DNA of 41,469 bases, taken from Candidatus Falkowbacteria bacterium (lineage in GTDB: Bacteria; Patescibacteriota; Patescibacteriia; Patescibacteriales; VMTK01). The stretch is taken from assembly GCA_043802685.1 (NCBI GenBank), contig JAZDKT010000078.1, positions 1-41,469 on the forward strand, written 5' to 3'. The notes beneath the pieces are model-generated. The model searched no databases. It saw nothing but the letters and a program-made list of their open reading frames with translations, and had not been told where the DNA came from. The position numbers and the translations under genes are program-made. Of this stretch, positions 23,887-41,199 are shown in pieces. How positions within the stretch are numbered: the first letter of the stretch is position 1; each line of letters starts with the position of its first letter.

Positions 23887-24252
23887 TTAAAAGTCCGCTT
23901 TCTCTTTAATAGCTTGGGCTTCCACAGACATAAGGCATTGGCCATTAATCATACCGCCTCGTTCAATACTTAAAATCTTACATTTAATGCCGCCCTTTAT
24001 CCACCCTGTTTTAGTGATGTGTAATTTTTCTTTCGCCTCAACATTACCTTCTGCCTTGCCAGCTACAATAATGCTGTTAGCCTTAATGTCAGCCTTGACC
24101 ATGGCCGACTTACTAATCTTAACATTTTTAGTATTTTCAATCATGCCATCTATCTTGCCGCTCACAACCAAATCTGCCAGGGATGATAATTTTCCCTCAA
24201 GTTTGGCTGAAGAATCAATAATGGTAGTGGAATATTTATTTTTTCCAAACAT
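23887..24252 (-). CDS. bactofilin (DUF583) family cytoskeletal protein
   Basis: Repetitive beta-helix pattern IDSSAKLEGKLSSLADLVVSGKIDGMIENTKNVKISKSAMVKADIKANSIIVAGKAEGNVEAKEKLHITKTGWIKGGIKCKILSIERGGMINGQ. Confidence 0.75.
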   Translation of the reverse strand: MFGKNKYSTTIIDSSAKLEGKLSSLADLVVSGKIDGMIENTKNVKISKSAMVKADIKANSIIVAGKAEGNVEAKEKLHITKTGWIKGGIKCKILSIERGGMINGQCLMSVEAQAIKEKADF

Positions 24253-24306
24253 ATCTTGGTTTCCAGAATCTAACGCAACACTATGTAAAAGCTAATAATT
24301 GATTTA

Positions 24307-24618
24307 TTACTGTTTAGTATTGAATTTAAGCTGTTTTTCCGGCTTTTTCGCCATCTTCCTTGCCCTAACATAATCTTCTTCTATCTCTATCTTTTTGGCT
24401 CGCGAACTTAAATAAGAATCGGTTTCCCACCAATCAATTCCCATTTCCTTAGCTTTATCCACTGAAGCTATCATTAACCTAATTTTAATTGTGAGCAACT
24501 CCACATCAGCAAGTTTAATCTGGATGTCGCCGGCAATAACAATGCCTTTGTCTAAAACGCGCTCTAAAATATCAGCTAAATTCGTAGCTTCTATACCATG
24601 GCTAATTTGTTCTGACAT
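24307..24618 (-). CDS. GvpA-family minor gas vesicle protein (GvpJ/GvpM/GvpS-like)
   Basis: LADILERVLDKGIVIAGDIQIKLADVELLTIKIRLMIASVDKAKEMG is the GvpA/J/M core (alpha-beta-beta-alpha) signature. Confidence 0.75.
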   Translation of the reverse strand: MSEQISHGIEATNLADILERVLDKGIVIAGDIQIKLADVELLTIKIRLMIASVDKAKEMGIDWWETDSYLSSRAKKIEIEEDYVRARKMAKKPEKQLKFNTKQ

Positions 24619-24662
24619 AAATTTTTTTTAATATTTATAATTGTTTAGTCCTAATAATTTTA

Positions 24663-25238
24663 TTACATTAAATTGCCCAGGGGTCCTAAATCTAAATTCA
24701 ATTCTTCATCTTCAATTCCAAAAACCGTTTTTAGCTCCTGCATTTTCTTCTCCATGGCTTTAAAAGTCATTCCTAACTTTTGAATTTCCGTATTAGAAAG
24801 AGATCCTTTTTGCATCCGCCTAATAACCTCTTTTTCCATTAACCTCCTTAATAACTCCACGAGAGTTAAAACTAATTTTGCTATGCCTTGTTCCGCTTTT
24901 TGGGGATTATCAGCATCAATGAGCTTGGGAATACTTGCTTCTGCCCTCTTTATTTCTTGCTCCAGCTTGGCAATATATTCTAAATCTTCCTTGGTTGGTT
25001 CTCGGCTGGGATAATAATCAGTCCCGGCGCTTTTCCAATTTTTACCGGACATTTCCTCTACTTTAGAAATAGAGGTTAGAAGAACTCTTAATCCTAAATA
25101 TATAAGATCTACATCAGCTACTCTTATTGCTACATCCCCGTTTATCACAGCCCCTTTTTCAAGAACTTTATCTAAAGCATCAATAAGAGTTACTCGCTGT
25201 TCTTTTGGTTTGGATAAAATTATTAGTGTATTTGCCAT
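24663..25238 (-). CDS. apparent fusion of a GvpJ/M-like (GvpA-family) domain and a GvpK-like domain
   Basis: aa ~15-62, TLIDALDKVLEKGAVINGDVAIRVADVDLIYLGLRVLLTSISKVEEM, is the GvpA-family core. aa ~113-175, QKAEQGIAKLVLTLVELLRRLMEKEVIRRMQKGSLSNTEIQKLG, is the GvpK signature (GLA.LVLT.VELLR.L.E+QA.RR...G.L). Confidence 0.7.
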   Translation of the reverse strand: MANTLIILSKPKEQRVTLIDALDKVLEKGAVINGDVAIRVADVDLIYLGLRVLLTSISKVEEMSGKNWKSAGTDYYPSREPTKEDLEYIAKLEQEIKRAEASIPKLIDADNPQKAEQGIAKLVLTLVELLRRLMEKEVIRRMQKGSLSNTEIQKLGMTFKAMEKKMQELKTVFGIEDEELNLDLGPLGNLM

Positions 25239-26071
25239 TTAATAAAATTGTAAGGCGGCCATGGGCCGCTATACTCAAAATTAAAACCTTTAGATTTATA
25301 TTCTTTATTTAATTTATTAATTTCTCTTGCAAAGTCTTTTAATTTTTCTTCTGAAATAAGAAAAATCGCATTTAAAATCATGGGCAAAGATTTACCTGTC
25401 AATTCTTTTTCTAAAATTTTACCTTTGGTTCCAGCAACCGCGCATTCTTTTAAATTTCTAAAAAAACTGTCAATATAATTTTCCAAAGCTCTGTCTGCTT
25501 CCCTTAAAACAGCATCATCTATCTGCTTTTGCATAAAATATGCCGTTCCTTCGGGAAGCAGGGCTATTTCTGTTTCTTTTTCCAGAACCACCGGACTAAC
25601 TCTTTTAACTTCATTACTAAAAGTTTGGCGGTTTAAATACGCCTTTACCGACCACTCTTGTTTTCCTGATAAATTTCTTAGATTTTCTTTGAATTTAAGG
25701 TAATATGTTTTAAGCATTTCCTTTATTTTTTCTTCGCTGTTAAAAATAGCGCCGAATTTCATGGGAATTGCCTCTTTTAATCTTTTATTTTTAAAGGGAT
25801 TCTTTTCTGCTGGAAAAGGAGAAAATTGAAATTCCATCGCTTCCTCTATTACCTGCTCATGAATTTGAGCTTTTTCTTTTACCCATTTTAAATTTTCTTG
25901 CGCTTTATTTTGAATTTCTTTTGAGCTGAATTCCTTTAAAGAAACATTGCTAACCACTGCTTCTAAATCCCTGAAAAAGACAGTAAAAACTTGACCCCTA
26001 TCAATTCCTTCTGCGGAAAATTTGGAATTAGTTTTTGCTCTAACGCAATAGAGATATAATCCCTGTTTCAT
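25223..26071 (-). CDS. GvpF/GvpL family protein
   Basis: N-terminal GLYLYCV start, the A.VS pattern (LEAVVSNV), and the C-terminal FEYSGPWPPYNF motif, as in GvpF/L. Confidence 0.8.
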   Translation of the reverse strand: MKQGLYLYCVRAKTNSKFSAEGIDRGQVFTVFFRDLEAVVSNVSLKEFSSKEIQNKAQENLKWVKEKAQIHEQVIEEAMEFQFSPFPAEKNPFKNKRLKEAIPMKFGAIFNSEEKIKEMLKTYYLKFKENLRNLSGKQEWSVKAYLNRQTFSNEVKRVSPVVLEKETEIALLPEGTAYFMQKQIDDAVLREADRALENYIDSFFRNLKECAVAGTKGKILEKELTGKSLPMILNAIFLISEEKLKDFAREINKLNKEYKSKGFNFEYSGPWPPYNFIKWQIH

Positions 26072-26085
26072 AAAGTTTGAATAGC

Positions 26086-26394
26086 TTATTCTTCGCTGCT
26101 GATTCCAGTATCTACTCTTTTTCGCATTTCTTTTCGCTCATAGCCAAGTAAATTGCCTTTTGCATCTAGCCTAATGTTATAAATTCCTAACACATCCATC
26201 CCGTCCGGGATAGATTTCTTTTCAACAATTTCAACTTTAACTACCCATTCTTCGCCTTCTTTTTTAAATCCTATCCCGGCTGGCGAGGAAAAACCGGTTA
26301 AATCAGCCAGCTGTTTTTTTGCTTTCTCAACAAGCTCTTTCGGCTCAAGATTTGATTTTACATCATTAGAAATGTTCTTTATTGTTTTTGTCAT
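26086..26394 (-). CDS. gvpO: gas vesicle protein GvpO
   Basis: AKKQLADLTGFSSPAGIGFKKEGEEWVVKVEIVEKKSIPDGMDVLGIYNIRLDAKGNLLGYERK parallels haloarchaeal GvpO (A+EQL.ELTG ... GW.V.VEVVE+.R.PD..DV...YEV.LD..GE..GY.R). Confidence 0.75.
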   Translation of the reverse strand: MTKTIKNISNDVKSNLEPKELVEKAKKQLADLTGFSSPAGIGFKKEGEEWVVKVEIVEKKSIPDGMDVLGIYNIRLDAKGNLLGYERKEMRKRVDTGISSEE

Positions 26395-26418
26395 AATAAT
26401 ATAAATTTAATAAATTAT

Positions 26419-26652
26419 TTATTCTCCTATTTTTTCTAAAATCTCTAATCTCTCTAAAATTTCCTCTTCTTCTTTTTGATATTCTGCTTCAGTAATTTCT
26501 TCCATTTCCAAACGCATTTGAATATCCAAAAGCTCTCTCTTGAGTTTTTCAGGAGTATCTGTTAATTCTTCTGCCACCATATCATTAATCTTATGAACAA
26601 CCCCCATAAATCCTCTGGCCGGGAGCAGTAATAAATCATCTATAATAAACAT
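26419..26652 (-). CDS. gvpG: gas vesicle protein GvpG
   Basis: MFIIDDLLLLPARGFMGVVHKINDMVAEEL followed by an acidic coiled coil matches GvpG (MF..DDLL..P...L......). Confidence 0.75.
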   Translation of the reverse strand: MFIIDDLLLLPARGFMGVVHKINDMVAEELTDTPEKLKRELLDIQMRLEMEEITEAEYQKEEEEILERLEILEKIGE

Positions 26653-26655
26653 AAA

Positions 26656-28665
26656 TTATATTCCGTATAATATTTTAGAAAAGCTATGCAATGAATCAAT
26701 TCCTCTAATATCATGCGGTAATAAAGGAACTAAAATTAAATTCTTCAAGGGATATTGTTTTTTAATTATACCCAGATATTTTTCTTGACCTTTTCTTTTG
26801 GCTAAACAGAAATTGCATTTGGAAGCAGGATTTATAAAATTGGCAATAATATAATTATAATTAATATTCATGCTTTCTAAAGATCCGTCCAAATCTTCCA
26901 TTTCTCTTATACCCATCTCCTCCGGAATGGTAATCATTAAAAATTCTGTTTTCGCGGAGCCAAATAAAATTTTCTGAATTTTTCTAATATCTCTGGATAA
27001 ATTTACTGTTTTTTGAGCAATTCCTTCTAATTTTAATCCTTGATATTTGCGAAGTATTTTAAAAATACTTTTAAGCCATTCTCTAACCAAGCCGGGAAGT
27101 TCTAAGAATCTAAGCAAATGGCCGGAAGCGGCTGAATCCAAAACATAAATATCATATTTGCTCCCACCCGCCAAATCCATAACTTTTCTTAAAGCCATTA
27201 GCTCTTCAAGCCCTGGCGGAGAAAGTTCCATCAACTCTTCCATAACCTGCTGATCGTAAACCACTTCTGCTCCCGGTCCTGTAAACTTATTAAATAACTC
27301 CTTAATACTCTCTTTATATTCATCTTTAAAATCTCTAAGACTTTTTTGAGTATCTATTTCTATGGCAAAAAGGTTATTAAAACCTCTGATAGAAACTGCT
27401 TCCGCGGCCAAGGGAATGTCTTGATCAAAAATATTGGAAAGAGCATGAGCCGGATCAGTGGTGGTAATAAGAATTTTTTTTTCTTTATGCTTTTTAGCCA
27501 GTGCCATAGCCGTAGCTGCCGCTATTGAAGTTTTGCCCACTCCTCCTTTCCCGCCGCAGATGACAAAGCTTAAATCCTTTTTTAAAAACTTTGCCATTTT
27601 GCCTTGAGGAATTTCTGGAAATTCAGGCAATTTTTTTGGCAAAATAATCTCAAACTCCTTCTCCGCGAATAAAATCCGAGCGTACTCATTTAAAGAATCT
27701 TGACCCCTAATTTCAGCGGGGAAAAGTGGCATCTTCAAAATCTGATAATCTTTTCCGCCCGAGACGGATCCGCCTTTGGCGGAAAATTTTTCTTCAATCA
27801 TTTTCAGATATTTTTCTTTTTCTTTTATTCTGGAAGCGCAAAGCGAGCATTCTCCTTCAACTGTTGCCATGCGATTAGCAATAATACTTTTTACTGAAAT
27901 TTTCATTATATCCAAATCTTTAACTAATTCCTCTGTCTCTAAAATACTCATTGGTTCGGGAATAGTTACTGGCACAAATTCAGTTGTTTCCTGATTTTTT
28001 AAAAGTTTTTCCACTCTTTCTATATCAGCCAGGGTCTTTGTTAAAAATTTATCACACTCATCATCAATATATTTTCTTCTTATCCGCTTCATAATAAACC
28101 GATGTTTTGCCATCATCAGGTCTGCCGCTTTTATCCATCTTTTCATCGCTTGAGGCAGGGATAAAAGAATCTTAGTGTGCCCGGTAGGAGCGGTATCAAG
28201 AATAATCAGATCATATTCTTTTTCTAAAAGCTCAGCAATTTTAATAATAGCCATTACTTCATCCATGCCTGGCATAGCCAGAGAAGTAAATTGTTCTATG
28301 TCCTCACTGTCAAGATAAGTTCCCCGATCAAGTAAAATTTTTATAGTTTCTGAATGTTGCTTGCGAAAATCTTCCATTAATTCTTTAGCCTCCATCTCAT
28401 AAGCCCAGATATTGTCTTGAATTTTAGTAATTTTATTGCCAACCTCTACATTAAAACTATCGCCAATGGAAGGGGCCGGATCAGTAGAAACTATTAAAAT
28501 TCTTTTGGTCTTGTATTTTTGGCCTAAGTATAAAGCGGTTGCGCAAGCGCAAGTAGTTTTGCCGCTGCCGCCCTTGCCGCCAAAGACAATAAACTTCAAT
28601 CTGTTATTAACAAGAAACTGATTTTTTGCCCTATTAGAAATTTTTGCTGAAATTTCCTTTTTCAT
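26656..28665 (-). CDS. tandem-domain ArsA/Get3-family P-loop ATPase
   Basis: Two deviant Walker A loops (FGGKGGSGKTT and CGGKGGVGKTS). The ArsA signature DTAPTGHT is present in half 1 and is degenerate (DSAASGHL) in half 2. Confidence 0.8.
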   Translation of the reverse strand: MKKEISAKISNRAKNQFLVNNRLKFIVFGGKGGSGKTTCACATALYLGQKYKTKRILIVSTDPAPSIGDSFNVEVGNKITKIQDNIWAYEMEAKELMEDFRKQHSETIKILLDRGTYLDSEDIEQFTSLAMPGMDEVMAIIKIAELLEKEYDLIILDTAPTGHTKILLSLPQAMKRWIKAADLMMAKHRFIMKRIRRKYIDDECDKFLTKTLADIERVEKLLKNQETTEFVPVTIPEPMSILETEELVKDLDIMKISVKSIIANRMATVEGECSLCASRIKEKEKYLKMIEEKFSAKGGSVSGGKDYQILKMPLFPAEIRGQDSLNEYARILFAEKEFEIILPKKLPEFPEIPQGKMAKFLKKDLSFVICGGKGGVGKTSIAAATAMALAKKHKEKKILITTTDPAHALSNIFDQDIPLAAEAVSIRGFNNLFAIEIDTQKSLRDFKDEYKESIKELFNKFTGPGAEVVYDQQVMEELMELSPPGLEELMALRKVMDLAGGSKYDIYVLDSAASGHLLRFLELPGLVREWLKSIFKILRKYQGLKLEGIAQKTVNLSRDIRKIQKILFGSAKTEFLMITIPEEMGIREMEDLDGSLESMNINYNYIIANFINPASKCNFCLAKRKGQEKYLGIIKKQYPLKNLILVPLLPHDIRGIDSLHSFSKILYGI

Positions 28666-29553
28666 ATCTTTAAATGCAATTCTACAAAATTAAAAGCAGG
28701 AATAGGGCCAATATATATAAACTTAATTCTCTTATTGTACTTTTTGATTAAAACATGCACTCTTTTATCAAACTCTCTTTCATTTTTTTTTTGAAACCAA
28801 GAAAGCATAACTGAAAATCATTGAATCTCTCATCGGTTCTAAAAATCTTATCAACTCTCTTTCTTTAAACTTTACCGCTAATTCTTTTAAAGATTTCAAG
28901 AGCTCTCCGGCTTCCCTTTCCCTTTTAGAGTCAACTGCCTTTTGGATTAATTCACCTACGCCGGCAATTCTAAATTGATGGGGATTTTTCTGGGCGTTTC
29001 TTTTTGCAATTTGAATTTCTTGATTCTCCTCAACTATTTCTTGAAAAATACTTGGCATATCTTTCCAAAATGCCCTAATGCCCAATTCTACTCTCCCTTC
29101 CACTATTGGAAATGTTTCTAAAAATTCTTTTCTTTTTGGCTTTAATATTTTTTCTTTAACATCTTCCGCGCTCTTGGCCACTGTGCCAAAACGAACCGGT
29201 AAAACATCATATCCTTGTTTCATCACTTCTTCAATAACCTTTTGATGGCGGGTTAGGTGTTCTTTAATAAAAGAATACTGATCTTTTGCCGTGTCAGTGA
29301 CTGCCATTGCCAATCCTCCTTTATTAATAGTATATACTTCTTTTCCTTCCTGCCCCGTTAGATATTTGTTCTCTTGATTCTTTTTATTCGCTCTTGTAAT
29401 ATCTAACGGGGCTTGCCGCAAAATTTTAAACTTTTGGGGCTTGCTTTCTTTAATAACACAATAAAGATATTTACCCTGATCTGAGTCTGATTGCCCCGCA
29501 GGCCTGTCATTTGGGACTCTGATTTGGGATTTTCCTTTTGCTTCAGCGGCCAT
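28662..29553 (-). pseudogene. GvpF/GvpL family gene interrupted by a +1 frameshift in an A10 run (possibly rescued by slippage)
   Basis: Frame 0 (29553..28780) ends ...IFSYAFLVSKKK-TGA. The +1 frame continues ...NEREFDKRVHVLIKKYNKRIKFIYIGPIPAFNFVELHLKI-TGA. This supplies the conserved GvpF/L C-terminus and ends in an ATGA overlap with the ArsA-like start at 28665. The start is placed at MAAEAKGK (29553), downstream of the preceding gene's stop. Confidence 0.7.
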
Positions 29554-29584
29554 AATTTTAATAATAATTGCTTTATAAAAATCT

Positions 29585-29929
29585 CTATTCTTGCGAAGTT
29601 GGTTTAGCCACAACAATGACCTGTTTTATAGCCACCACCAATCCGGCAGCTGCTATAAAAGCGATAAAATTTTCCAAAATTGAAGCGACTGCCAATGTTA
29701 ATTTTCCAAGCTGTAAACCGCCGACTCCAATTAAAAGCAAGGTGATCACGGCCACAAGAAACGGAATGCTTTCTTTTTCTTTTACATTTAAAAATCCAAC
29801 AATTAAACCTAAAACAAACAGAATAACTAATAGATACGGAATAGCGGCAAAGCCAGCCAGCACTGCAAACGCTATGCCTCCGATTAAAGCCCAGCGGCCA
29901 ATAGTTGTAAGATTATATTTTAATGCCAT
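29585..29929 (-). CDS. small 4-TM membrane protein, hypothetical
   Basis: Four hydrophobic helices (WALIGGIAFAVLAGFAAIPYLLVILFVLGLIVGF...FLVAVITLLLIGV...FIAFIAAAGLVVAI). Confidence 0.5.
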   Translation of the reverse strand: MALKYNLTTIGRWALIGGIAFAVLAGFAAIPYLLVILFVLGLIVGFLNVKEKESIPFLVAVITLLLIGVGGLQLGKLTLAVASILENFIAFIAAAGLVVAIKQVIVVAKPTSQE

Positions 29930-30092
29930 ATTTTTGAGATATTATTTGCCCTGCATTTTTTAAGCATTAAAATGAATAGACTTGCCGCGCAATTAGTCTC
30001 GCAACGCAATTTTATAATGCGAACTCTATAAAGAGTAATGCTTAAAAGATAAGTAGGGGTTATGAATTATAATAAAATTCGACCTTTAAAAA

Positions 30093-31160
30093 TTATTTAA
30101 TAATTAAAGAATTTCTTACATCTTCTTCCTTAAAAGAATATCTTTGATTCCTGTTTTCTCCAAAAAAACTGCCACAGCTTTTGCAATAACTTTTTAGAAT
30201 ACTATAAGCGCGAACTATTTTTTTCATTTGTTCTGCTGTTTCCTGATTATCTTGATGCTTATCCGGATGATATTGATGGGAAAGGGCATAATAAGCCTTT
30301 TTAATTTCTTCGGGACTAGCTTCCTCGCCCAGGCTCAATAATTTTCTTGCTTTATTTATTATTTCAAAATTACCTAAACTAAGATTAATATTAACAAAAC
30401 TATAGGGGGGCATTGGGCCAATATACTTAAACCTTAATTTCCCTTCGTATTTTTTACCCAATTCTTGCATTTTACTATCCAATTCAAACTCTCTGGACTT
30501 CTCTATTAAGAAAGAAAAGTTGGCTATCATGTCCTCGCTGATTAATTTATTTAAGGTGAAGTCATGAGCCATGATTCTTAAGAATGCTTCAATGTTCTTG
30601 ATATTAGTTTGCTTATAAGCTTCTGCCTGCCGCTGGATTAGTCTGCCTAACTTCAATTTAAGCGGCAGACCCAGAATACTTGTTTTGACGGACAACTGCT
30701 GTCTTAGCCCCTGAATTTCTGAATTAGTGTTAACTAATTCTTCAAGCAGCTTTTTTTGATCCCACCAGACTTGAACCGCAAACTCAACCTTGCCTGCTGT
30801 TGTTTTTAAAGCTGTTTTAAATTGAATATAAGCTTTCGCTAAAATACATTTTATTTCTTCATTATTAGGAGCAATAATCCCAAAAGCCATTGGCGCAACA
30901 TTATAATCTTTCATTATTTCTTCATTCACTTGCTGGTGGATGGCAATATGCCTTGTTAGTTCTTTTTTATCTAAACGATCAAAATTAATAACCGGGGTAT
31001 CTGAAACTGCCGCTGCTATATCTTGATAATTGAGAATGTTGATAACTTGATGATTAATTCCAATATAGCTAAGGCCGCTGGCATTGGCTTGGCCGAAAGC
31101 ATCGCGGGCGGCTCTTTTATCTTTATTCTGCTCAATTACGCAATAAATATATTTCCCCAT
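30093..31160 (-). CDS. GvpL/GvpF family protein fused to a C-terminal J-domain
   Basis: GKYIYCV start and the FKYIGPMPPYSF motif (GvpF/L). aa ~265-325, EEIKKAYYALSHQYHPDKHQDNQETAEQMKKIVRAYSILKS, has an intact HPD tripeptide (J-domain, nt about 30186-30368). Confidence 0.75.
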   Translation of the reverse strand: MGKYIYCVIEQNKDKRAARDAFGQANASGLSYIGINHQVINILNYQDIAAAVSDTPVINFDRLDKKELTRHIAIHQQVNEEIMKDYNVAPMAFGIIAPNNEEIKCILAKAYIQFKTALKTTAGKVEFAVQVWWDQKKLLEELVNTNSEIQGLRQQLSVKTSILGLPLKLKLGRLIQRQAEAYKQTNIKNIEAFLRIMAHDFTLNKLISEDMIANFSFLIEKSREFELDSKMQELGKKYEGKLRFKYIGPMPPYSFVNINLSLGNFEIINKARKLLSLGEEASPEEIKKAYYALSHQYHPDKHQDNQETAEQMKKIVRAYSILKSYCKSCGSFFGENRNQRYSFKEEDVRNSLIIK

Positions 31161-31264
31161 TTTTATCTAGTTAGAAAATTTTATTAGACTATGCCAAATT
31201 ATCCATAGCAAGTATTTGCAGATATCGCGAGCAATAGCGAGCCAATATCCGCAAGAGCATCCCA

Positions 31265-32341
31265 TTAATTTGTTCTTTTTCTATCAGCAATAGCGGCGAT
31301 TAACGCTCCTTTGGCAACAGTATAAAGCGGATGCGGAGCCATCCTTACTTCCTTTACTTTTAAAGGAAAACTCGTTTTCCCAAGTATCTCTTTAAACCTT
31401 TCAATAAATCCCTGCGGATTTGCCGTACCTCCTGAAACAATTATCGGAATGGGAGTTTCAAATTCAGGAATTTTGCCCTTTTCTTCAACCTCTTTTTTTA
31501 TTTGATCCAAAACATATTCAATCAGGTGATCATAATAAATAGAAAGGGCATGCTCAGTTTTAGTCATACTGCTTTCGCTCTTTTTAAGATTTAAAAAGTT
31601 TTCCTTAAAGGTAGTAATTTTGCTGATTGGCTCATTGGTAACAATGGCAACTTGTTCATCAATCCAGTCCCCGGCTTTAGCCACGCTGAAAGAAAACACC
31701 GGCGCAGACATTAAGGATAGGCAGACATTAGCCATTCCGCCGCCAAATGATATGCCCATGCCCGTAAAATTATCTTCTGCTAATTCAGAAAAAATTACCG
31801 CTAAACCCTCGTTCAAGGGCTTTGCTTGGTACCCCCATTTTTCAAGAAATCCTTTTATTATATTTTGATGGTAAATATTATCAAAATCCGCGTCAATTGG
31901 AGGGCCGGGAACAGAAAAATAACAAATTTCATTTTTTTCAGCAGGCGGCTCTAAAACGCTTTTTATTATCAATTCAATAATTGGCAATGCTTCGGTTTCT
32001 TTAGCGCTAATTACTCCGCTCTTTAGCGGTCTTCTGGTGTTGCCGCCAAAAACATTAGCAAACTTCATAGCATCGCTTCCCACCACATAAATTTTATCTT
32101 GACCCAGGACATATTTGACATTACTTTTTTCTAATATCCCTTGGGTAAATTCAGAATATTCAACATCGAAAAAAGCATCTCTTTGAGCCCTAAAACTTAC
32201 CTGTGAATTTATTTTTTGAGCGCAGTAAATAAAAGCGGTGCCGACATCTAATCCTTTGCCCATTTGCGGTAAAACCAATTTATTTGTTTTTGTACGATTC
32301 TCTTTAGCCATAGAACCGCGGGCATGTTGTTGTTTTGTCAT
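31265..32341 (-). CDS. actin-fold (MreB/ParM/Hsp70 superfamily) ATPase
   Basis: Phosphate-1 GLDVGTAFI, the MreB-like RPLKSGVIS, phosphate-2 GISFGGGMANVC, and the adenosine motif IIVSGGTANPQGF. Confidence 0.7.
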   Translation of the reverse strand: MTKQQHARGSMAKENRTKTNKLVLPQMGKGLDVGTAFIYCAQKINSQVSFRAQRDAFFDVEYSEFTQGILEKSNVKYVLGQDKIYVVGSDAMKFANVFGGNTRRPLKSGVISAKETEALPIIELIIKSVLEPPAEKNEICYFSVPGPPIDADFDNIYHQNIIKGFLEKWGYQAKPLNEGLAVIFSELAEDNFTGMGISFGGGMANVCLSLMSAPVFSFSVAKAGDWIDEQVAIVTNEPISKITTFKENFLNLKKSESSMTKTEHALSIYYDHLIEYVLDQIKKEVEEKGKIPEFETPIPIIVSGGTANPQGFIERFKEILGKTSFPLKVKEVRMAPHPLYTVAKGALIAAIADRKRTN

Positions 32342-32411
32342 ACTTTTTATTTAATACTTATTTTTTCCTCTTCTTTTTCGACCTTTTCGCCCGGTTAAAA
32401 ATTTACTATTC

Positions 32412-32873
32412 CTATTTATTTCTCATCTTCTCAAAATAATTTCTAACCGGGTTTAAAAAACAAGCCGCCCTCTCAATACTTTGGCCTAAATTTAATTTTT
32501 TCTCTTCCGGCTCAAATTTATTCTCTGGATTTTTACTGCTAACCTTTTTTGCTAAATACTTAAAGTTATCCTCTAACGGCTTTACCTTTAATTTTTTAGG
32601 GAAATAATAAATTACTTTTTCTATATTTTTTTCTTTTTTAAAAACTTTCGGCTTTATTAAACATCTACATTCCAGTTCTTTTATTCCTTTAAAAGCGATC
32701 TTATACCAATCCCGTTTTCCTTTAATCGGCTTAATCCATCCTTTTTTAAATAAACAATCGCAAATATAACGAATGTAATCAATGCCGAATTTTGTCTGGC
32801 TGGAAATTAATTTAATATTGGATTCTTCTTTATTTTCCCAAATTTTTTTTAAAACTTTTAATTCACTATTCAT
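32412..32873 (-). CDS. small putative winged-helix protein, paralog of 36124..36462
   Basis: The N-terminus LKVLKKIWENKEESNIKLISSQTKFGIDYIRYICDCLFKKGWI aligns with RVLEIIWDWGGEASVNIITREANISIDYARLICESLARESCI. Function unknown. Confidence 0.4.
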   Translation of the reverse strand: MNSELKVLKKIWENKEESNIKLISSQTKFGIDYIRYICDCLFKKGWIKPIKGKRDWYKIAFKGIKELECRCLIKPKVFKKEKNIEKVIYYFPKKLKVKPLEDNFKYLAKKVSSKNPENKFEPEEKKLNLGQSIERAACFLNPVRNYFEKMRNK

Positions 32874-33273
32874 ATAACCTAGAAGACTTTAATTTATCTT
32901 TTGCTTGATCCAATATATCAAAATTCTCTTTTTCTGCCATTCTTAATTCATCTATAAACTCCTTGCTTTTGCTTTGCAGCTTTTTTAATAACATTATCCT
33001 CATCTCTAAATTTTTTTCTAATTCCTTAACTTCCTGATAGGTCTTTTCTAAAGCTATTTGTTCCCGCGCTATTTCCTTTTGATGCTCATTTATTTTTTTA
33101 ATTAAATCAATGTTCTCTTCTTTTACTTTTGAATTAATTTGTTGCGCTTCTTCCTTTAAGGGAGAAAGCGGTTTTCTGCTCATAGCAAACTCTATCTGGG
33201 GCGCTTTGTTTAATTCTTCCCCTGCCTCCTTTAATCCTTCTATGATGCTTTTGGGGCTTGCATTTGATTCCAT
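32866..33273 (-). CDS. coiled-coil protein, hypothetical
   Basis: 135 aa with heptad-rich K/E sequence. It overlaps the 3' end of the AAA+ gene by 34 nt and the next gene by 8 nt. Confidence 0.4.
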
Positions 33274-35450
33274 ATTATTTTAAAATGATTATTAGTAATT
33301 TTAAATTTTTGGCAGTTTTTTAAACTTTTTAACCCGACCGCTTCACTGCCTGCCCGCAAAGCCTTAGTAAGCGGGCGCGAATCATCGCGGATAAATTTAA
33401 CAAATTCTCTAATAGCTAAAATTGAAGCTTGCTTGCAAATGGCTTCAATATCAGATCCTACTAATCCTTTGCTTTCTTTAGCTAAATTTTCTAAATTCAC
33501 ATCTTTAGCCAATGGCTTGCCTCTTGTATGAATTTTAAATATCTCCAACCTTGTTTTCCCATCCGGCTTTGGCACCTCTAAAATAAAATAAAAGCGGCCG
33601 GTTCGGCGCAATGCAGGGTCAATCAAATCCAAGCGGTTGGTAGCTCCAAGGATTACAACCCCTTTAAGCTCTTCAATGCCATCAAGTTCAGTTAAAAATT
33701 GGCTTACTACTCTCTGAGTTACAGAGGAGTCAACGTTTTGGCTGCGAGCAGGAACCAAACTGTCCAGCTCATCAAAAAAAACAATGCAAGGACTGGCTTG
33801 CTTAGCTTTTTTAAAAACTTCCCTTACTGCTTTTTCAGATTCTCCTATGTATTTTGATAAAAGCTCAGGACCCTTGACAGAAATAAAATTTACGCCGCAT
33901 TCAGACGCTACTGCTTTGGCTATTAAAGTCTTGCCTGTTCCGGGAGGGCCGTAAAGCAAAATTCCTTTAGACGGACTGGTTTTGGTATAATCAAAAAGTT
34001 TGCTATATTTCAATGGCCACTCAATGGTTTCTTTTAAGGTCTGCTTTATTTGTTCCAAACCTCCCACATCCTTCCACCTAACATCAGGAATTTCAGTAAA
34101 AATTTCTCTTAAAGCTGACGGCTCAACTTCTTTTAATGCTTCTATAAAATAATCCGCGGTTACTTCCATCTCTAAAAGTTTTTTATAAGGAATATATTCT
34201 TTAGCAAATTCAATCTCCGGCATGATTTTTCGCAGAGCCGACATGGCTGCCTCTCTAACCAAAGCTTCTAAGTCTGCCCCCACAAAGCCATGGGTTATTT
34301 CAGATAGCTTGTCTAAATTAACATCTTCTCCCAGGGGCATGCCTCTAGTATAAATTTCCAATATTTCTTTTCTGCCATTTTTATCAGGAATACTAATGGC
34401 AATCTCTCTATCAAATCGGCCCGGTCTTCGCAATGCCGGATCCAGGGTATTGGGAATATTAGTGATTCCAATAACTACCAAATTGCCCCTTGATTCCAAG
34501 CCATCCATTAAAGCCAGCAATTGGGCAACCACTCTTCTTTCCACTTGTTTTTCTCCGCCCATATCCTCTCTTTTAGGGGCAATGCCGTCAATTTCATCTA
34601 TAACTAAAATGGCAGGGGCATTAGCTTGGGCATCCTCAAATACTTCTCTTAATCTTGCTTCTGACTCCCCATAAAATTTGCCCATGATTTCAGGCCCGGA
34701 AATAGAAGTAAAATAAGCATCAGTTTCGTTAGCTACCGCTCTGGCAATCAAAGTTTTGCCGCAACCAGGGGGTCCGTATAATAAAACTCCCTTGGGAGGA
34801 TCTATGCCTAATCTCTCAAAAACCTCGGGATATTTTAAGGGAAGTTCAATCATCTCTCTAATCCTGCCGATTTCTTTTTTAAGTCCTCCGATGTCTTCAT
34901 AAGTGACTCCTACTCCCTGCTTGTCTTTTGCTTCTCCCTTGATCTTGATTAAAGTAGCGGGAGTAATCAAAACAGCTCCTTGAGGGTCAGTAGCTTCCAC
35001 TAAAAAATCCTGGGATTTACTGCCAAAAAAGGTTACTCTTATTTTATTTCCTTTTAAAACCGGGGTGCCGTCTAATATTTTGGCCAAATATTCACTACTT
35101 TCTTGTTTTTTAAAAGATCCGTCTAAACTTAAAGGAGATAAAACTAAAGTATTAGCTTTCTCATAAGAAGTCTTTTGAATTTCAACCTTTTCATCTAAAC
35201 CTGTCTTAAGGTTGTCTCGCGCTATGCCATCTATTTGAACAATCTCTTTGCCGCGATCTTCTGAATAAGCGGGCATTAATTTGGCTACTACTTCTTTACC
35301 CTCCACTTTTAACCTAATTATATCTCCTGCATCTGCCTGAATTTTTGCAAAATATTCAGGGTCTACTCTGGCTATTGCCCTGCCCGCGTCCTTGCTCCGG
35401 GCTTCTGCTATCTTAAGAACTATTGATTTTGTTTGCGCTTTTTTAATCAT
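33240..35450 (-). CDS. Cdc48/VAT/p97-like double-ring AAA+ ATPase
   Basis: Cdc48-type N-domain ([22 protein letters not shown]...[11 protein letters not shown]). Two AAA modules carry Walker A GPPGCGKT and GPPGTGKT and Walker B ILVIDEID and IVFFDELD, with second-region-of-homology motifs. Confidence 0.88.
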
Positions 35451-35547
35451 AAATCATGAAACAATCCTTCGGCGTATTTATATTCGCATGCAGACATAAT
35501 TTGCGGCATTGGGATTATATCTGTGTGAATTAACCCGCTAACTTTTT

Positions 35548-36114
35548 CTAAAATATTTTTTTTAACTTCACTTTTAATATCCCGTTTTTAAAATCTATTT
35601 TACGGGACTGGAAATCTACGCTGTCCGGCAGTAAAATCTCTTTGGCATATTTCCTGTCTTGATTACCGGCTTCAATTATAAGAATGTCTTTCTTGAGATC
35701 AAGTTTAATGGCTTTTTCATCAATGCCGGGAAGTTCAGCGATAATTAAAATGTGATCCTTCTCGTTAAAAACATCAACTATCGGCTCTCTATTTTCCACA
35801 ACCTCAACTTCCTTTTTACCGGCTTTTTTTTCAACAGGCCGAATATTGCCAAAAGTTTGCACTCGCGGCCGGCCGCCAATACCGCTTCTTATTGAAAATC
35901 CATAAACCCCTTTAGCATCCTTTCCTTTTCCCAAACCCCTGATTTTTCCTTCTTTTCTAATCTCTCCCCCGGCTTCTTCAACTTTTTCCGCTAAATCAAT
36001 AAATTTCCCCAATCCCTTAATTAATCCTCCAACCAAAGGCAAATCTTCAAGCATCTCTAATTCTTCCCTTGCCTGATCAGTGTTCTTTTTTTCACTTTTT
36101 TTATATTTAACCAT
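35548..36114 (-). CDS. Hsp20/alpha-crystallin domain protein (GvpH-like position)
   Basis: The C-terminal alpha-crystallin pattern is VDVFNEKDHILIIAELPGIDEKAIKLDLKKDILIIEA......YAKEILLP..VD.....IDFKNGILKVKLKK. Confidence 0.7.
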   Translation of the reverse strand: MVKYKKSEKKNTDQAREELEMLEDLPLVGGLIKGLGKFIDLAEKVEEAGGEIRKEGKIRGLGKGKDAKGVYGFSIRSGIGGRPRVQTFGNIRPVEKKAGKKEVEVVENREPIVDVFNEKDHILIIAELPGIDEKAIKLDLKKDILIIEAGNQDRKYAKEILLPDSVDFQSRKIDFKNGILKVKLKKIF

Positions 36115-36123
36115 ACCCTAAAA

Positions 36124-36462
36124 TCAATAGTTTAGAATTAATTTTCCTTTTTTATCTTTACCTAAACCAAACCTACTCAGCCTTTCAGGAAGAACAATTT
36201 TTCTTGCCCCGTTAAAAAATTTTTGACTTCTAACGAGGTGAAGATTCCGGTCTTTTTTTCTTGCGGCTATTAACTTTCCTTTATCTTTTATATTGCACAA
36301 TTTGGAGCGCGAAAAATCAATACAACTTTCCCTTGCCAAGCTCTCGCAAATAAGCCGGGCATAATCAATACTAATGTTCGCTTCTCTGGTAATAATATTA
36401 ACTGAAGCCTCTCCTCCCCAATCCCAAATTATCTCTAAAACTCTTTGTTCATTTGTAGTCAT
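36124..36462 (-). CDS. small putative winged-helix protein, paralog of 32412..32873
   Basis: See the N-terminal alignment to 32412..32873. The C-terminal tail is KKGKLILNY. Confidence 0.4.
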   Translation of the reverse strand: MTTNEQRVLEIIWDWGGEASVNIITREANISIDYARLICESLARESCIDFSRSKLCNIKDKGKLIAARKKDRNLHLVRSQKFFNGARKIVLPERLSRFGLGKDKKGKLILNY

Positions 36463-36472
36463 AAATCTAATG

Positions 36473-36820
36473 CTAATATCCTAATACTATCTTTCCTTTT
36501 TTCTTCCCGCCGACATTTGAGCTGCGGCCGCTTCCTCCTTCTGCCGCCCCTCGTATCTTAACTGCTGTTTGAGTAGCTTTGGCAAGAAGTTTGTTCATTT
36601 CTTTTTCCACATCTTCCAATCTTGTTTGCAGTTGCACTTTTCTTCTTCTTGTCCTTTTTAACTCCCCTGTTAATCTATCTTTTTCATTCCTTCGCATATA
36701 CAAATCTAAAATAGCCGTAGTGGGAAGATCTGGTTTGCCGCTTTTTTTCACTGCTCCGGTGTATGTCCTTAAATCATGAAGACTATTAACATCTTGAAAC
36801 GTTTTTATTGATGTTTTCAT
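36473..36820 (-). CDS. small basic coiled-coil protein (possibly GvpV-like)
   Basis: ILDLYMRRNEKDRLTGELKRTRRRKVQLQTRLEDVEKEMNKLL is reminiscent of the short coiled-coil GvpV-type proteins found next to gvpN in cyanobacteria and Serratia. This is from memory only. The C-terminal tail is KKGKIVLGY. Confidence 0.35.
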   Translation of the reverse strand: MKTSIKTFQDVNSLHDLRTYTGAVKKSGKPDLPTTAILDLYMRRNEKDRLTGELKRTRRRKVQLQTRLEDVEKEMNKLLAKATQTAVKIRGAAEGGSGRSSNVGGKKKGKIVLGY

Positions 36821-36829
36821 AATTTTTAG

Positions 36830-37771
36830 TTAACAGTATTTTTTAATTAAATCTTTAACCAAATTTTCTATTTCTTTGCGGCGCGGCGACCATGGGCTGC
36901 GAGTAGTCTGTGAAACTAATACATCTTTAGCTAATTGTTTAAATTGCGAGTCAGAAGCCGAAACCTTTCCTTTGATAGCTCCTAAAACCTTGCCAAGAAT
37001 AATACAACTGCGGACAGTCGGAGGAAATTCACAAGGATTGCTTGTTCTCATTCCTCTTACTATATCAACGATTTTTTCCGCGTCTTCCTTGGGAATCCCT
37101 GATTTAGCCTGGGTTATTGCAACCTCGGTTTTTCTGTCAAAATACTCTAAATCCATTGTTACCATTCTATCCCTTAAAGCATCCTGCGCTTTATGAGTGC
37201 CGGCATATTCTTCAGGATTAGAAGTAAAGATTGCGCAAAAATCAGGATGAACTTTTAAGTAGTGGCGCTCATCTCCGTCTCTTTTCATCGGCAGGTCCAT
37301 TACTTTCTCTTGTAAAATTGAAAGTAAAATATTATTAGCTTCCGGTTTTGATCTGGTAAACTCATCATATATTAAAGTAAAGCCATGCTTGCAGGCGATA
37401 GTCAAGCGATTATCCATCCAGCGCTTAGACATATCTTGTTCTACTTTTAGGACGCTGGAAATAAAATTATCCTTTAAATATCTGTAGTGATATCCCTGCT
37501 CGCCTCCTACTAAATCAGAAGTTTTATGTTCTTCGTCGCCATGAAACAAAACCACCGGCCTGCCAATCTTGCTTGCCACATGCAGAGCCATGGTTGTTTT
37601 ACCGGTTCCCGTAGGACCTCTAAAATGAACCGGGATGCCAACTTTAAAATAATTTAAAGCTCGACTGGTAATCCGCTTTACATACGGAGTTTCAATAAAG
37701 TCAGCCATTGGCCGCGCCTCAATAACCGCTTGCTCTTCTTCTGTTGATAAATAAGGCATATAATAATCCAA
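36830..37771 (-). CDS. gvpN: gas vesicle AAA+ ATPase GvpN
   Basis: FRGPTGTGKTTMALHVA (Walker A), LIYDEFTRS (Walker B) and the size (~310 aa) are typical of GvpN (MoxR/CbbQ-like). Confidence 0.85.
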   Translation of the reverse strand: MDYYMPYLSTEEEQAVIEARPMADFIETPYVKRITSRALNYFKVGIPVHFRGPTGTGKTTMALHVASKIGRPVVLFHGDEEHKTSDLVGGEQGYHYRYLKDNFISSVLKVEQDMSKRWMDNRLTIACKHGFTLIYDEFTRSKPEANNILLSILQEKVMDLPMKRDGDERHYLKVHPDFCAIFTSNPEEYAGTHKAQDALRDRMVTMDLEYFDRKTEVAITQAKSGIPKEDAEKIVDIVRGMRTSNPCEFPPTVRSCIILGKVLGAIKGKVSASDSQFKQLAKDVLVSQTTRSPWSPRRKEIENLVKDLIKKYC

Positions 37772-37831
37772 TAAAATTTAGATGATTTTAGATAGAATAA
37801 ATTTGACCTTGAATGTCAAAATTTTTTATTT

Positions 37832-38350
37832 TTATTTCTTTTTTTTACTTTTTTCTTTTGTTGTTGCGTGCGTTTCCTCTAATGCATCTTCTTTTTCTGC
37901 CGCTATCTCTTTGCCTTTTGAGCCAGCCCAATAATGAGCGGCTTCTTTTCGTTCTATTCTATAACCGCCAAGAAGAGATTTAGTGGATCTTCTGATTTCC
38001 TCCACTACCGCATTAACATCTTTCATTGTTGCTTTAAAATCAGCTATCCTTTTGTCTTTACTATCGGCTATAAAACTTTTTACACCGCCTTTTATGTCTT
38101 TAACATCGGACTTTATTCCTTGAATCATATTATGAAAATTTTTCTTTCTTGCCTCTTCGCTTTTGCTTAAAAAATCTTTAAGCTCTATGGACATTTCTCT
38201 TAATTCACTGCCCATGTTTTTCATGTAATCATCAGCTGATCCCAAAATATTTCTACTTTCCTTTTTTATCTCGTTAATACTATCCCTTCTGTCTTTATGG
38301 TTAATTTTAATTTCAACTGCTAAATTTTTCATTTCTTGCGCCCAAGCCAT
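37832..38350 (-). CDS. coiled-coil protein, paralog of 39096..39632
   Basis: Shared blocks are RKKNFHNMIQGI vs RKKDFNKMMEDI, and IERKEAAHYWAG vs MEREKVAVEWEG. Lys/Glu-rich with a predicted helical repeat character. Confidence 0.5.
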   Translation of the reverse strand: MAWAQEMKNLAVEIKINHKDRRDSINEIKKESRNILGSADDYMKNMGSELREMSIELKDFLSKSEEARKKNFHNMIQGIKSDVKDIKGGVKSFIADSKDKRIADFKATMKDVNAVVEEIRRSTKSLLGGYRIERKEAAHYWAGSKGKEIAAEKEDALEETHATTKEKSKKKK

Positions 38351-38532
38351 AATTTTATATAAATTTAAAATTTAGGATTCTCGCCCTGTTAAATATAGAA
38401 TTATCTAAACAGAGCGAACTTTAAATTTCAAATTTTTAAATTAAAAATTATTTTATATTTCGACCTTTTGATTATTAGACCTGTTGCGTAATAAGTTGCG
38501 TGACAATCCTATTAAAATTCTTTGACAAAAAA

Positions 38533-38838
38533 TTAATAATTGCCAATCTCCGGCAACCCGGTATCAGCGCCCAGCCCCTTCCTGCCTTTTCTACCGTCTT
38601 TCGGAACCACTCCTCTGCCTTTGCAAACAGAACAAGCCAATCTATGATGAGCAAAAACCCCTGTTCCATTGCAAGCCGTGCATGTCTGGTGTGGAATATC
38701 CGCAATCATAACTATTCCCTTTCCTAAACAAACTTGGCAATTAGAAAGAATTGAGGGAACTCCAAAAGGATCTTTGCCTTTGCCTTTGCAAAAGGCGCAA
38801 ACAGCTTTTTTATAATTAATCGCTATTTTCTTAGGCAT
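38533..38838 (-). CDS. DnaJ-type cysteine-rich zinc-finger protein (4 x CxxCxGxG)
   Basis: CAFCKGKG, CQVCLGKG, CTACNGTG and CSVCKGRG are the four-repeat zinc-centre pattern of the DnaJ central domain. No J-domain is present. Confidence 0.65.
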   Translation of the reverse strand: MPKKIAINYKKAVCAFCKGKGKDPFGVPSILSNCQVCLGKGIVMIADIPHQTCTACNGTGVFAHHRLACSVCKGRGVVPKDGRKGRKGLGADTGLPEIGNY

Positions 38839-38870
38839 AAAGCTTTTATTATAAATATTTTAATATTTTT

Positions 38871-38981
38871 AGGAATTACGCGTTTGGCAATATTTTATTA
38901 TCAGCACCGAGTGCTGTCGCAGCACTCGGTGCTGATAATAAAATAACAGTTTTGCTTTTTACATTCAAGCGCGTAATTCCT
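38871..38981. repeat. nested palindrome: perfect 22-bp arms with a 3-nt loop, inside 12-bp outer arms
   Basis: The inner pair is TTATTATCAGCACCGAGTGCTG tcg CAGCACTCGGTGCTGATAATAA (38895-38941). The outer pair is AGGAATTACGCG (38871-38882) and CGCGTAATTCCT (38970-38981). Confidence 0.9.
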
Positions 38982-39095
38982 AATTTTACTAAACTTTGGC
39001 GCTTTTGGCGATAATTGGCGATAATTTAGCGAGAGAGATGTTTTCTAATCTGCGATTCTGCTCCAAAGCGCTCCAAAGGCGCCAAAGTCCTGATT

Positions 39096-39632
39096 TTATT
39101 TCTGTCTTTTTTGGGCCATTAAAGCCACCATGCCTTCCCATTCTACGGCCACTTTTTCCCGCTCCATTTTAAAATTCTCAAGCATTTTATGAATTTCTGA
39201 TTGCATTTGATCAAACTCTATTTTTATATTTCCTGAACTCTTTTTTCCTCTGATTTCTTGTTCTTTTTTAATTTTTACTAAAGTTTTCTTAAAATCTTTA
39301 AGTCTTAACTCTTCCCCCTTGCTAAGCATTTCTCTAAGATATTTAACTACTGCGGTTTCTTGATCCTGAAAATCAGTTAACATCTGTTTTACATTTTCTT
39401 CACGATTTTTTTGAGCAAATAAAATATCCTCCATCATCTTATTGAAATCTTTTTTTCTTAAAGATTGAAATTTAGCCAAAGCTTCCCTAAGTTCCTCTCC
39501 CATCCTTTTCCTTTTTTGCTTAAATTCTTCCAGCAATCTTCTGGTGTCTTCAACTATCTCTCCAACTACTTTTATGCGAACTTCATAAGCGGCCACGATA
39601 TCTTTGGCGATTTTAAAATTACTACTACCCAT
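39096..39632 (-). CDS. coiled-coil protein, paralog of 37832..38350, second gene after gvpA
   Basis: See the paralog blocks listed for 37832..38350. 178 aa, K/E-rich. Confidence 0.5.
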   Translation of the reverse strand: MGSSNFKIAKDIVAAYEVRIKVVGEIVEDTRRLLEEFKQKRKRMGEELREALAKFQSLRKKDFNKMMEDILFAQKNREENVKQMLTDFQDQETAVVKYLREMLSKGEELRLKDFKKTLVKIKKEQEIRGKKSSGNIKIEFDQMQSEIHKMLENFKMEREKVAVEWEGMVALMAQKRQK

Positions 39633-39882
39633 ATTTTAATAAAGCTTTAATAAATATACAAAAGCTTGTATTTACTATTTTGGCTTATCATTAATCATTC
39701 ATCTTATTAGTCCATAAAAAATTCTGTCTAAACAAATAAAATAATCAGCAGTTTGGGACATGCTTAAAGCTTGGGAAAAATTCCCCGCAAAGGGTAAAAA
39801 AATTTGCGCTTTGCCATGTTGCATTAAGGATGTCTCAAACAAAAAAATTTTTAGATTACTCCTAAAGAGTCATCTTAAAACG

Positions 39883-40086
39883 CTAAGCAGTGGCGGTAAG
39901 GCCAATAGCCTCTGCGTATTTCAGCCAAGTCTCAACAGAAGCAACTACTGCTCGAACTTCTACCGCTAAAAGTTCAATGCCGACTAATGATACTCTTACC
40001 CAAGCGTCAATTACAACGCCTTTGTCAAGAATTCTATCAACTACTTCCACTAAGCTTGAACTGGCCATTGATTTTTCTACAGCCAT
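39883..40086 (-). CDS. gvpA: major gas vesicle structural protein GvpA
   Basis: [63 protein letters not shown] is near-identical in pattern to canonical GvpA. The start is placed at MAVEK (40086); an upstream in-frame ATG at 40101 would add MKIKD. Confidence 0.93.
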
Positions 40087-40634
40087 ATCTTTTATTTTCA
40101 TTCAGTCAAGCCAAAGCTAAATAATATGAAATGACTGGATGAAATTTATTAATAGTTTATTAAAATTCGACCTTTGTTATTTTATTAAAAATAATATCAC
40201 CGCATGATTTCATTTTGAAGAAAAAGTTTTTCTGTAACGATCTTGATGCTCCGGCGAGGAAGAAGAAATAAAATATCGTTTTTTTCTCCCTTGTATTAAT
40301 CGTTGAAATAATTTAATTAATTTTTGTTTTATCTTGTCCCGCATAATAATTTTTATATTTTAATAATTTTAACCAACAAAAAAACCTAAAAAAATTTAGG
40401 TTTTCCATTTTTTGGGTGCCGACCCTTTTTATTAAATTGTCATTTCTTGCCTGATTAAATAAATCATCTTGCGCAACGCCTGAAACAATATAATTATTCT
40501 TAATCATTATTATAGCAAACTGTTTTAAACTATGCAATGCCTTTTATTACCTGTCTCTTATTGTTAACACTTTGAAGCCAACAAGAAACACAAATTAATT
40601 TATAAATGATATTCTTTGTATTTTTTATCCATTT

Positions 40635-40830: not shown

Positions 40831-41199
40831 ATGGCTAAAAAAATTATCTCATTTGAAACCAAAAAACTTGGGGAGTATCTTCGGCGCCTTCGCCAAGAAC
40901 AGGACTTAAGCATTAGACAAGTTGCCAAGGAATGCAAGATGTCTCCCAGTAATCTTGCTAAAATAGAAACTGGCAATACCTTTAGAACCGTTGGCATTGA
41001 AACGATTGTTAAACTTTCAAAATTCTACGGCATTCCGGTATCAGGAATATTGGAGCAAGCAAACTTTATTGAGAATCATAAAGATGATCTGCCGGAACTC
41101 GCCCAATATCTGCGCGCCAAATACCAGCTTTCTCCTCAAGCCATTCGCGATATGGAAATGGCCAAAGAAATTGTTGACAAAAAATATCCCAAGAGATAA
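40831..41199 (+). CDS. XRE-family helix-turn-helix transcriptional regulator
   Basis: LGEYLRRLRQEQDLSIRQVAKECKMSPSNLAKIETGN is the HTH_3 (Cro/C1) signature. The gene is divergent from the gvp locus. Confidence 0.75.
   Translation: MAKKIISFETKKLGEYLRRLRQEQDLSIRQVAKECKMSPSNLAKIETGNTFRTVGIETIVKLSKFYGIPVSGILEQANFIENHKDDLPELAQYLRAKYQLSPQAIRDMEMAKEIVDKKYPKR

Follow-up and report, generated by a model that had tools for sequence, protein, structure and literature searches.

A probably complete gas-vesicle biogenesis locus with proteostasis and actin modules in Candidatus Falkowbacteria

The window is 41,469 nt of DNA that form the entire record of a MAG labelled Candidatus Falkowbacteria at NCBI, and it carries a single minus-strand block of 22 genes at 23887-40101 (Table 1). 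Using profile HMMs, we identified GvpA, GvpN, three GvpF/L proteins (one with a J domain), GvpG, GvpO, GvpJ/M and a GvpJ/M-GvpK fusion, all above curated thresholds and all as named in an earlier, sequence-only reading. Between these canonical genes, co-directional and tightly spaced, lie genes for two ATPases, one of Cdc48/VAT type and one a tandem Get3/ArsA protein, for an actin of the Volactin family, for Hsp20 and a DnaJ-type zinc-finger protein, for a bactofilin, and for one pair each of winged-helix and helical paralogs. Curated cut-offs were also exceeded for Cdc48, Get3/ArsA, Volactin, Hsp20, the J domain, the zinc finger and bactofilin, and the two pairs proposed as paralogs match each other (winged-helix, E 3e-8; helical, earlier called coiled-coil, E 1e-8). 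These matches bear out the non-canonical genes of that reading and support a gas-vesicle locus with a genuine co-directional chaperone and cytoskeleton complement. Of the close spacings it listed, 25223/25238, 32866/32873 and 33240/33273 do overlap and 26652/26656 leaves a gap of 3 nt; the overlap at 28662/28665 appears only once a 1-nt insertion at 28783 is removed. Each essential function of the haloarchaeal model (A, F, G, J, K, L, M, O), together with N, has a recognisable gene in the island.

Table 1. Genes and other features of the gas-vesicle island and its upstream flank
Feature	Position	Strand	Evidence or remark
Bactofilin, last gene of block	23887-24252	-	PF04519 89.3 bits
gvpJ/M-like minor shell protein	24307-24618	-	PF00741 65.6 bits
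GvpJ/M-GvpK fusion	24663-25238	-	PF00741 51 bits (residues 17-55); PF05121 106 bits (residues 111-191)
GvpF/L	25223-26071	-	PF06386 185 bits
gvpO	26086-26394	-	PF05800 71.2 bits
gvpG	26419-26652	-	PF05120 62.5 bits
Tandem (pseudo-dimeric) Get3/ArsA-family ATPase	26656-28665	-	PF02374 448 bits, two stretches; TIGR00345 425.7 bits (cut-off 135)
Middle gvpF/L	28662..29616 (uncorrected reading frame 28780-29616)	-	PF06386 151 bits, ends at profile position 211/245
Strongly hydrophobic protein, 114 aa	29585..29929	-	Patescibacteria-restricted; homologs in L001 and L003 only
GvpF/L with C-terminal J domain	30093-31160	-	PF06386 193.7 bits; PF00226 (DnaJ J domain) 55.5 bits
Actin-fold ATPase, Volactin family, gvp-linked subfamily	31265-32341	-	PF25216 320 bits
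Winged-helix protein, 153 aa	32412..32873	-	Directly upstream of actin; disordered linker, conserved C-terminal amphipathic helix
Coiled-coil protein, 135 aa	32866-33273	-	Patescibacteria-restricted
Cdc48/VAT-type double-ring AAA+ unfoldase	33240-35450	-	CDC48_N, CDC48_2, two AAA and lid domains
Hsp20/alpha-crystallin small heat-shock protein	35548-36114	-	PF00011 24.1 bits (cut-off 20.8); GvpH-like position
Winged-helix paralog, 112 aa	36124..36462	-	Ends ...GKLILNY; paralog of 32412-32873
115-aa protein	36473..36820	-	Invariant C-terminal L-x-Y-COOH
gvpN AAA+ ATPase	36830-37771	-	TIGR02640 332 bits (cut-off 267)
Second helical paralog, 172 aa	37832..38350	-	Lysine-rich tail; BLASTP against 178-aa paralog E 1e-8; same family alignment (A4)
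DnaJ-type zinc-finger protein	38533-38838	-	Four CxxCxGxG motifs; PF00684 34.6 bits
Long perfect hairpin	38860..39000	-	Spacer between 178-aa and zinc-finger genes; MFE -66.1 kcal/mol, z = -12.2
Helical repeat-family protein, 178 aa	39096..39632	-	gvpC position; paralog of 37832-38350
gvpA, major shell protein	39883-40101	-	PF00741 61 bits; NF006874 124.7 bits (cut-off 100)
Cro/C1-type HTH protein	40831..41199	+	HTH_3 PF01381 48.7 bits; divergent to locus

The GvpA product aligns over 67 residues with Anabaena GvpA (8gbs, E 9e-29). Translation of gvpN probably begins at the ATG at 37759, which yields a 309-aa product that is on record in at least 22 contigs. The J domain on the GvpF/L fusion has its HPD motif (YHPDK in the translation), and this fusion recurs in Patescibacteria and Omnitrophota loci. 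The GvpJ/M-GvpK fusion is also found in other Patescibacteria loci; in Omnitrophota GvpK is a separate gene. In this contig one extra nucleotide in the poly-A run at 28783 splits the middle gvpF/L (A10 here vs A9 in L087-L090). With A9 the product is 296 aa long and the gene runs 4 nt into the start of ArsA, and L092, L094 and L095 have one indel across the region with an intact 296-aa gene call. Of eight other assemblies compared, seven lack the insertion and one ends before that position. Since one gvpF/L is frameshifted, the strain of this contig could be defective.

The Cdc48 protein is full length (N-D1-D2), with VAT (5g4f, E 1e-216) as its best PDB sequence match; GKFYGE and SKYIGE, which carry aromatic residues, lie at the expected Cdc48 pore-loop positions as placed without alignment to VAT, and inspection of the translated C-terminus revealed no HbYX motif. 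Each half of the tandem Get3/ArsA ATPase contains a CxxC motif (ECSLCA and KCNFCL). Against the arsenical-pump equivalog TIGR04291 this ATPase scores 216, below the cut-off of 650. The Hsp20 scores 28.6 bits for ArsA_HSP20 and 137.9 bits for archaeal Hsp20 (NF041800, cut-off 140), and its ortholog in the Minisyncoccales MAG (L003) gives a weak GvpH match. Among the 37 loci whose actin is at least 52% identical, Cdc48 is present in 25 and Hsp20 in 24. A two-domain ArsA homolog and Hsp20 inside gvp operons were described in 2010 from Bacteroidetes/Chlorobi, cyanobacteria, a delta-proteobacterium and an acidobacterium (PMC2963123), and Hsp20 adjoining gvp genes was noted again later (PMC7325909). 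The earlier statement that the extra genes lie outside the described gvp gene sets is thus wrong for these two; our literature search turned up no account of Cdc48 or actin within gvp clusters, or of gvp genes in CPR bacteria.

The actin has invariant nucleotide-binding motifs (DxGT, GGG and GGT). Its AF2 model is confident (pLDDT 80.9), with a predicted fold nearest to the filament formers MreB (4czm), MamK (5ljv) and BeeR (8r2n), and MamK was the sole match of the family profile among PDB sequences. We found two or more gvp families at 30 of the 37 loci with actins at or above 52% identity and at none of the 43 below it, which suggests a gvp-dedicated actin subfamily, new here. Directly upstream, the 153-aa protein is predicted by AlphaFold to have a winged helix at residues 1-72 (pLDDT >94) and a helix at residues 129-152, its C-terminus (EEKKLNLGxxIEKAVSFLK) is conserved, and the order of winged-helix and actin genes is kept across loci. 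These features make it a candidate adaptor for the actin. The winged-helix proteins could also be plain transcription factors. For the 153-aa protein, Foldseek returned weak matches to MarR and to AspA, the centromere-binding protein of pNOB8 (E 6e-3 to 1e-2). An [LIVMF]xY(G) ending occurs in 7 of 14 members of the winged-helix family. An L-x-Y-COOH ending is found in all 8 members of the 115-aa family vs 23 of 3447 background ORFs; this protein matched no family in profile searches and has homologs in gvp loci of Patescibacteria, Bacteroidetes, Nitrospirae and Elusimicrobia (alignment A3).

No ORF matched GvpC in Pfam, so the earlier view that a GvpC-type repeat protein is missing holds at that level. 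It does not hold for the helical tandem-repeat family after gvpA, which we consider a candidate GvpC-like outer scaffold on the basis of position and repeats. The 178-aa member matched no Pfam or NCBIfam family. Its homologs immediately follow gvpA in Saganbacteria (L035) and Patescibacteria loci; in Omnitrophota, Nitrospirae, Lentisphaerae and Planctomycetia they open the gvpN-side block, with gvpA undetected upstream or located after. Tandem repeats in the family are 33, 51 or 65 aa long (33 aa in one Omnitrophota homolog), and the 178-aa copy itself has a single weak 51-aa duplication. The zinc-finger protein encoded next to it carries CAFCKGKG, CQVCLGKG, CTACNGTG and CSVCKGRG, and has homologs in 12 of the 37 gvp-type loci.

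The expansion extends beyond this genome and beyond CPR bacteria, and by the refuting condition of the sequence-only reading its uniqueness fails. About 30 species-representative MAGs, with labels from binning that span at least 10 phyla, have the extra genes in synteny with gvp genes and in almost the same arrangement. The recurring order is gvpA, repeat protein, zinc finger, gvpN, Hsp20, (ArsA), Cdc48, gvpF/L, actin, gvpF/L-G-O-F/L-K-J, shared by MAGs whose labels cover at least nine other phyla, with variants in other Patescibacteria and Omnitrophota. The extra genes are therefore routinely present, and already described for ArsA and Hsp20 only. A cluster type with its own actin, Cdc48-type unfoldase and chaperones points to a little-studied, widely conserved design. 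In the Minisyncoccales MAG the genes stand in the order found here, down to the divergent HTH gene, which lies upstream of gvpA there (L003, 60% identity) and in L092-L095; its product is a candidate regulator of the gvp locus.

Some genes are lineage-restricted. Bactofilin was found in this lineage and in one other Patescibacteria MAG (L010) only; its gene falls within the 99.86%-identical island, which ends at ~23831, and is a lineage-specific addition outside the conserved core of the system. The 135-aa coiled-coil protein matched no family in profile searches and has homologs in close Patescibacteria loci only. The 114-aa protein, previously read as having four transmembrane helices, is hydrophobic over most of its length, with overlapping Kyte-Doolittle windows >1.6 covering residues 7-110; the windows run together without resolving discrete helices, and it is probably a multi-pass membrane protein. 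Given this restricted distribution, the three may be unrelated passengers. For all genes that were compared with the Minisyncoccales ortholog set, pN was far below pS, with dN/dS of 0.04-0.36, values that are rough because dS is saturated; canonical and extra genes alike are under purifying selection.

At least four independent assemblies (ENA, NCBI, JGI and Logan) contain the junction between gvp and housekeeping genes, so the contig is not a chimera and, within the limits of sequence data, mis-assembly is excluded; on the other flank, sister contigs carry NrdR/NrdD. As anticipated, the locus is more AT-rich than the housekeeping part at 6.5-23.5 kb (GC 35.7% vs 39.1%, GC3 0.31 vs 0.43). Between strains the island is 99.86% identical and its flanks 91-95%, and a shell-gene cassette is swapped. 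This strain mosaic is new here. Related Falkowbacteria populations have probably undergone a recent exchange or sweep of the machinery part of the island, and the shell cassette, made up of the repeat proteins, the zinc finger and the 3′ part of gvpA, occurs as divergent alleles. Together with the GC3 difference, the identities make horizontal exchange of the island plausible, in keeping with the acquisition suggested earlier.

A CPR host, as first proposed, agrees with the contig's label and with a PrfB search, in which the best matches with a name more specific than "bacterium" come from Patescibacteria, Parcubacteria or Falkowbacteria. Because CPR cells are so small, conventional gas vesicles may not fit in them or lift them usefully, and this counts against a functional organelle. 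Altogether, we judge it probable that the 16-kb island is a complete gas-vesicle biogenesis locus in Candidatus Falkowbacteria (CPR/Patescibacteria), of a conserved multi-phylum cluster type whose canonical gvp genes have proteostasis and actin modules as constant companions, and the island is probably functional.

Functions of the cluster-type genes beyond homology are what we infer from sequence. The divergent HTH protein would control transcription from upstream of gvpA, which would supply the shell, with the two helical repeat-family proteins as GvpC-like outer scaffold. The three GvpF/L copies, G, J/M, K and O would nucleate the vesicle and GvpN would aid its growth. Hsp20 and the DnaJ-type zinc-finger holdase may keep the very hydrophobic shell subunits assembly-competent, the J domain on one GvpF/L may recruit the host's DnaK, and the Get3-like tandem ATPase may shield hydrophobic segments. 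A VAT-like Cdc48 hexamer would unfold or extract misassembled or collapsed shell protein for reuse. Volactin-family filaments would organise or partition vesicles, with the adjacent winged-helix protein, through its conserved C-terminal helix, as a ParR- or MamJ-style adaptor; this role would resemble that of MamK with magnetosomes.

The housekeeping spacers contain short tandem repeats of 7-8 nt, which are absent from the locus. The spacer at 38.84-39.10 kb that had been singled out before has word repeats and the long hairpin. Because the hairpin is confined to this allele and the identical contig L091, it is strain-specific; it is a candidate attenuator or inserted palindrome.

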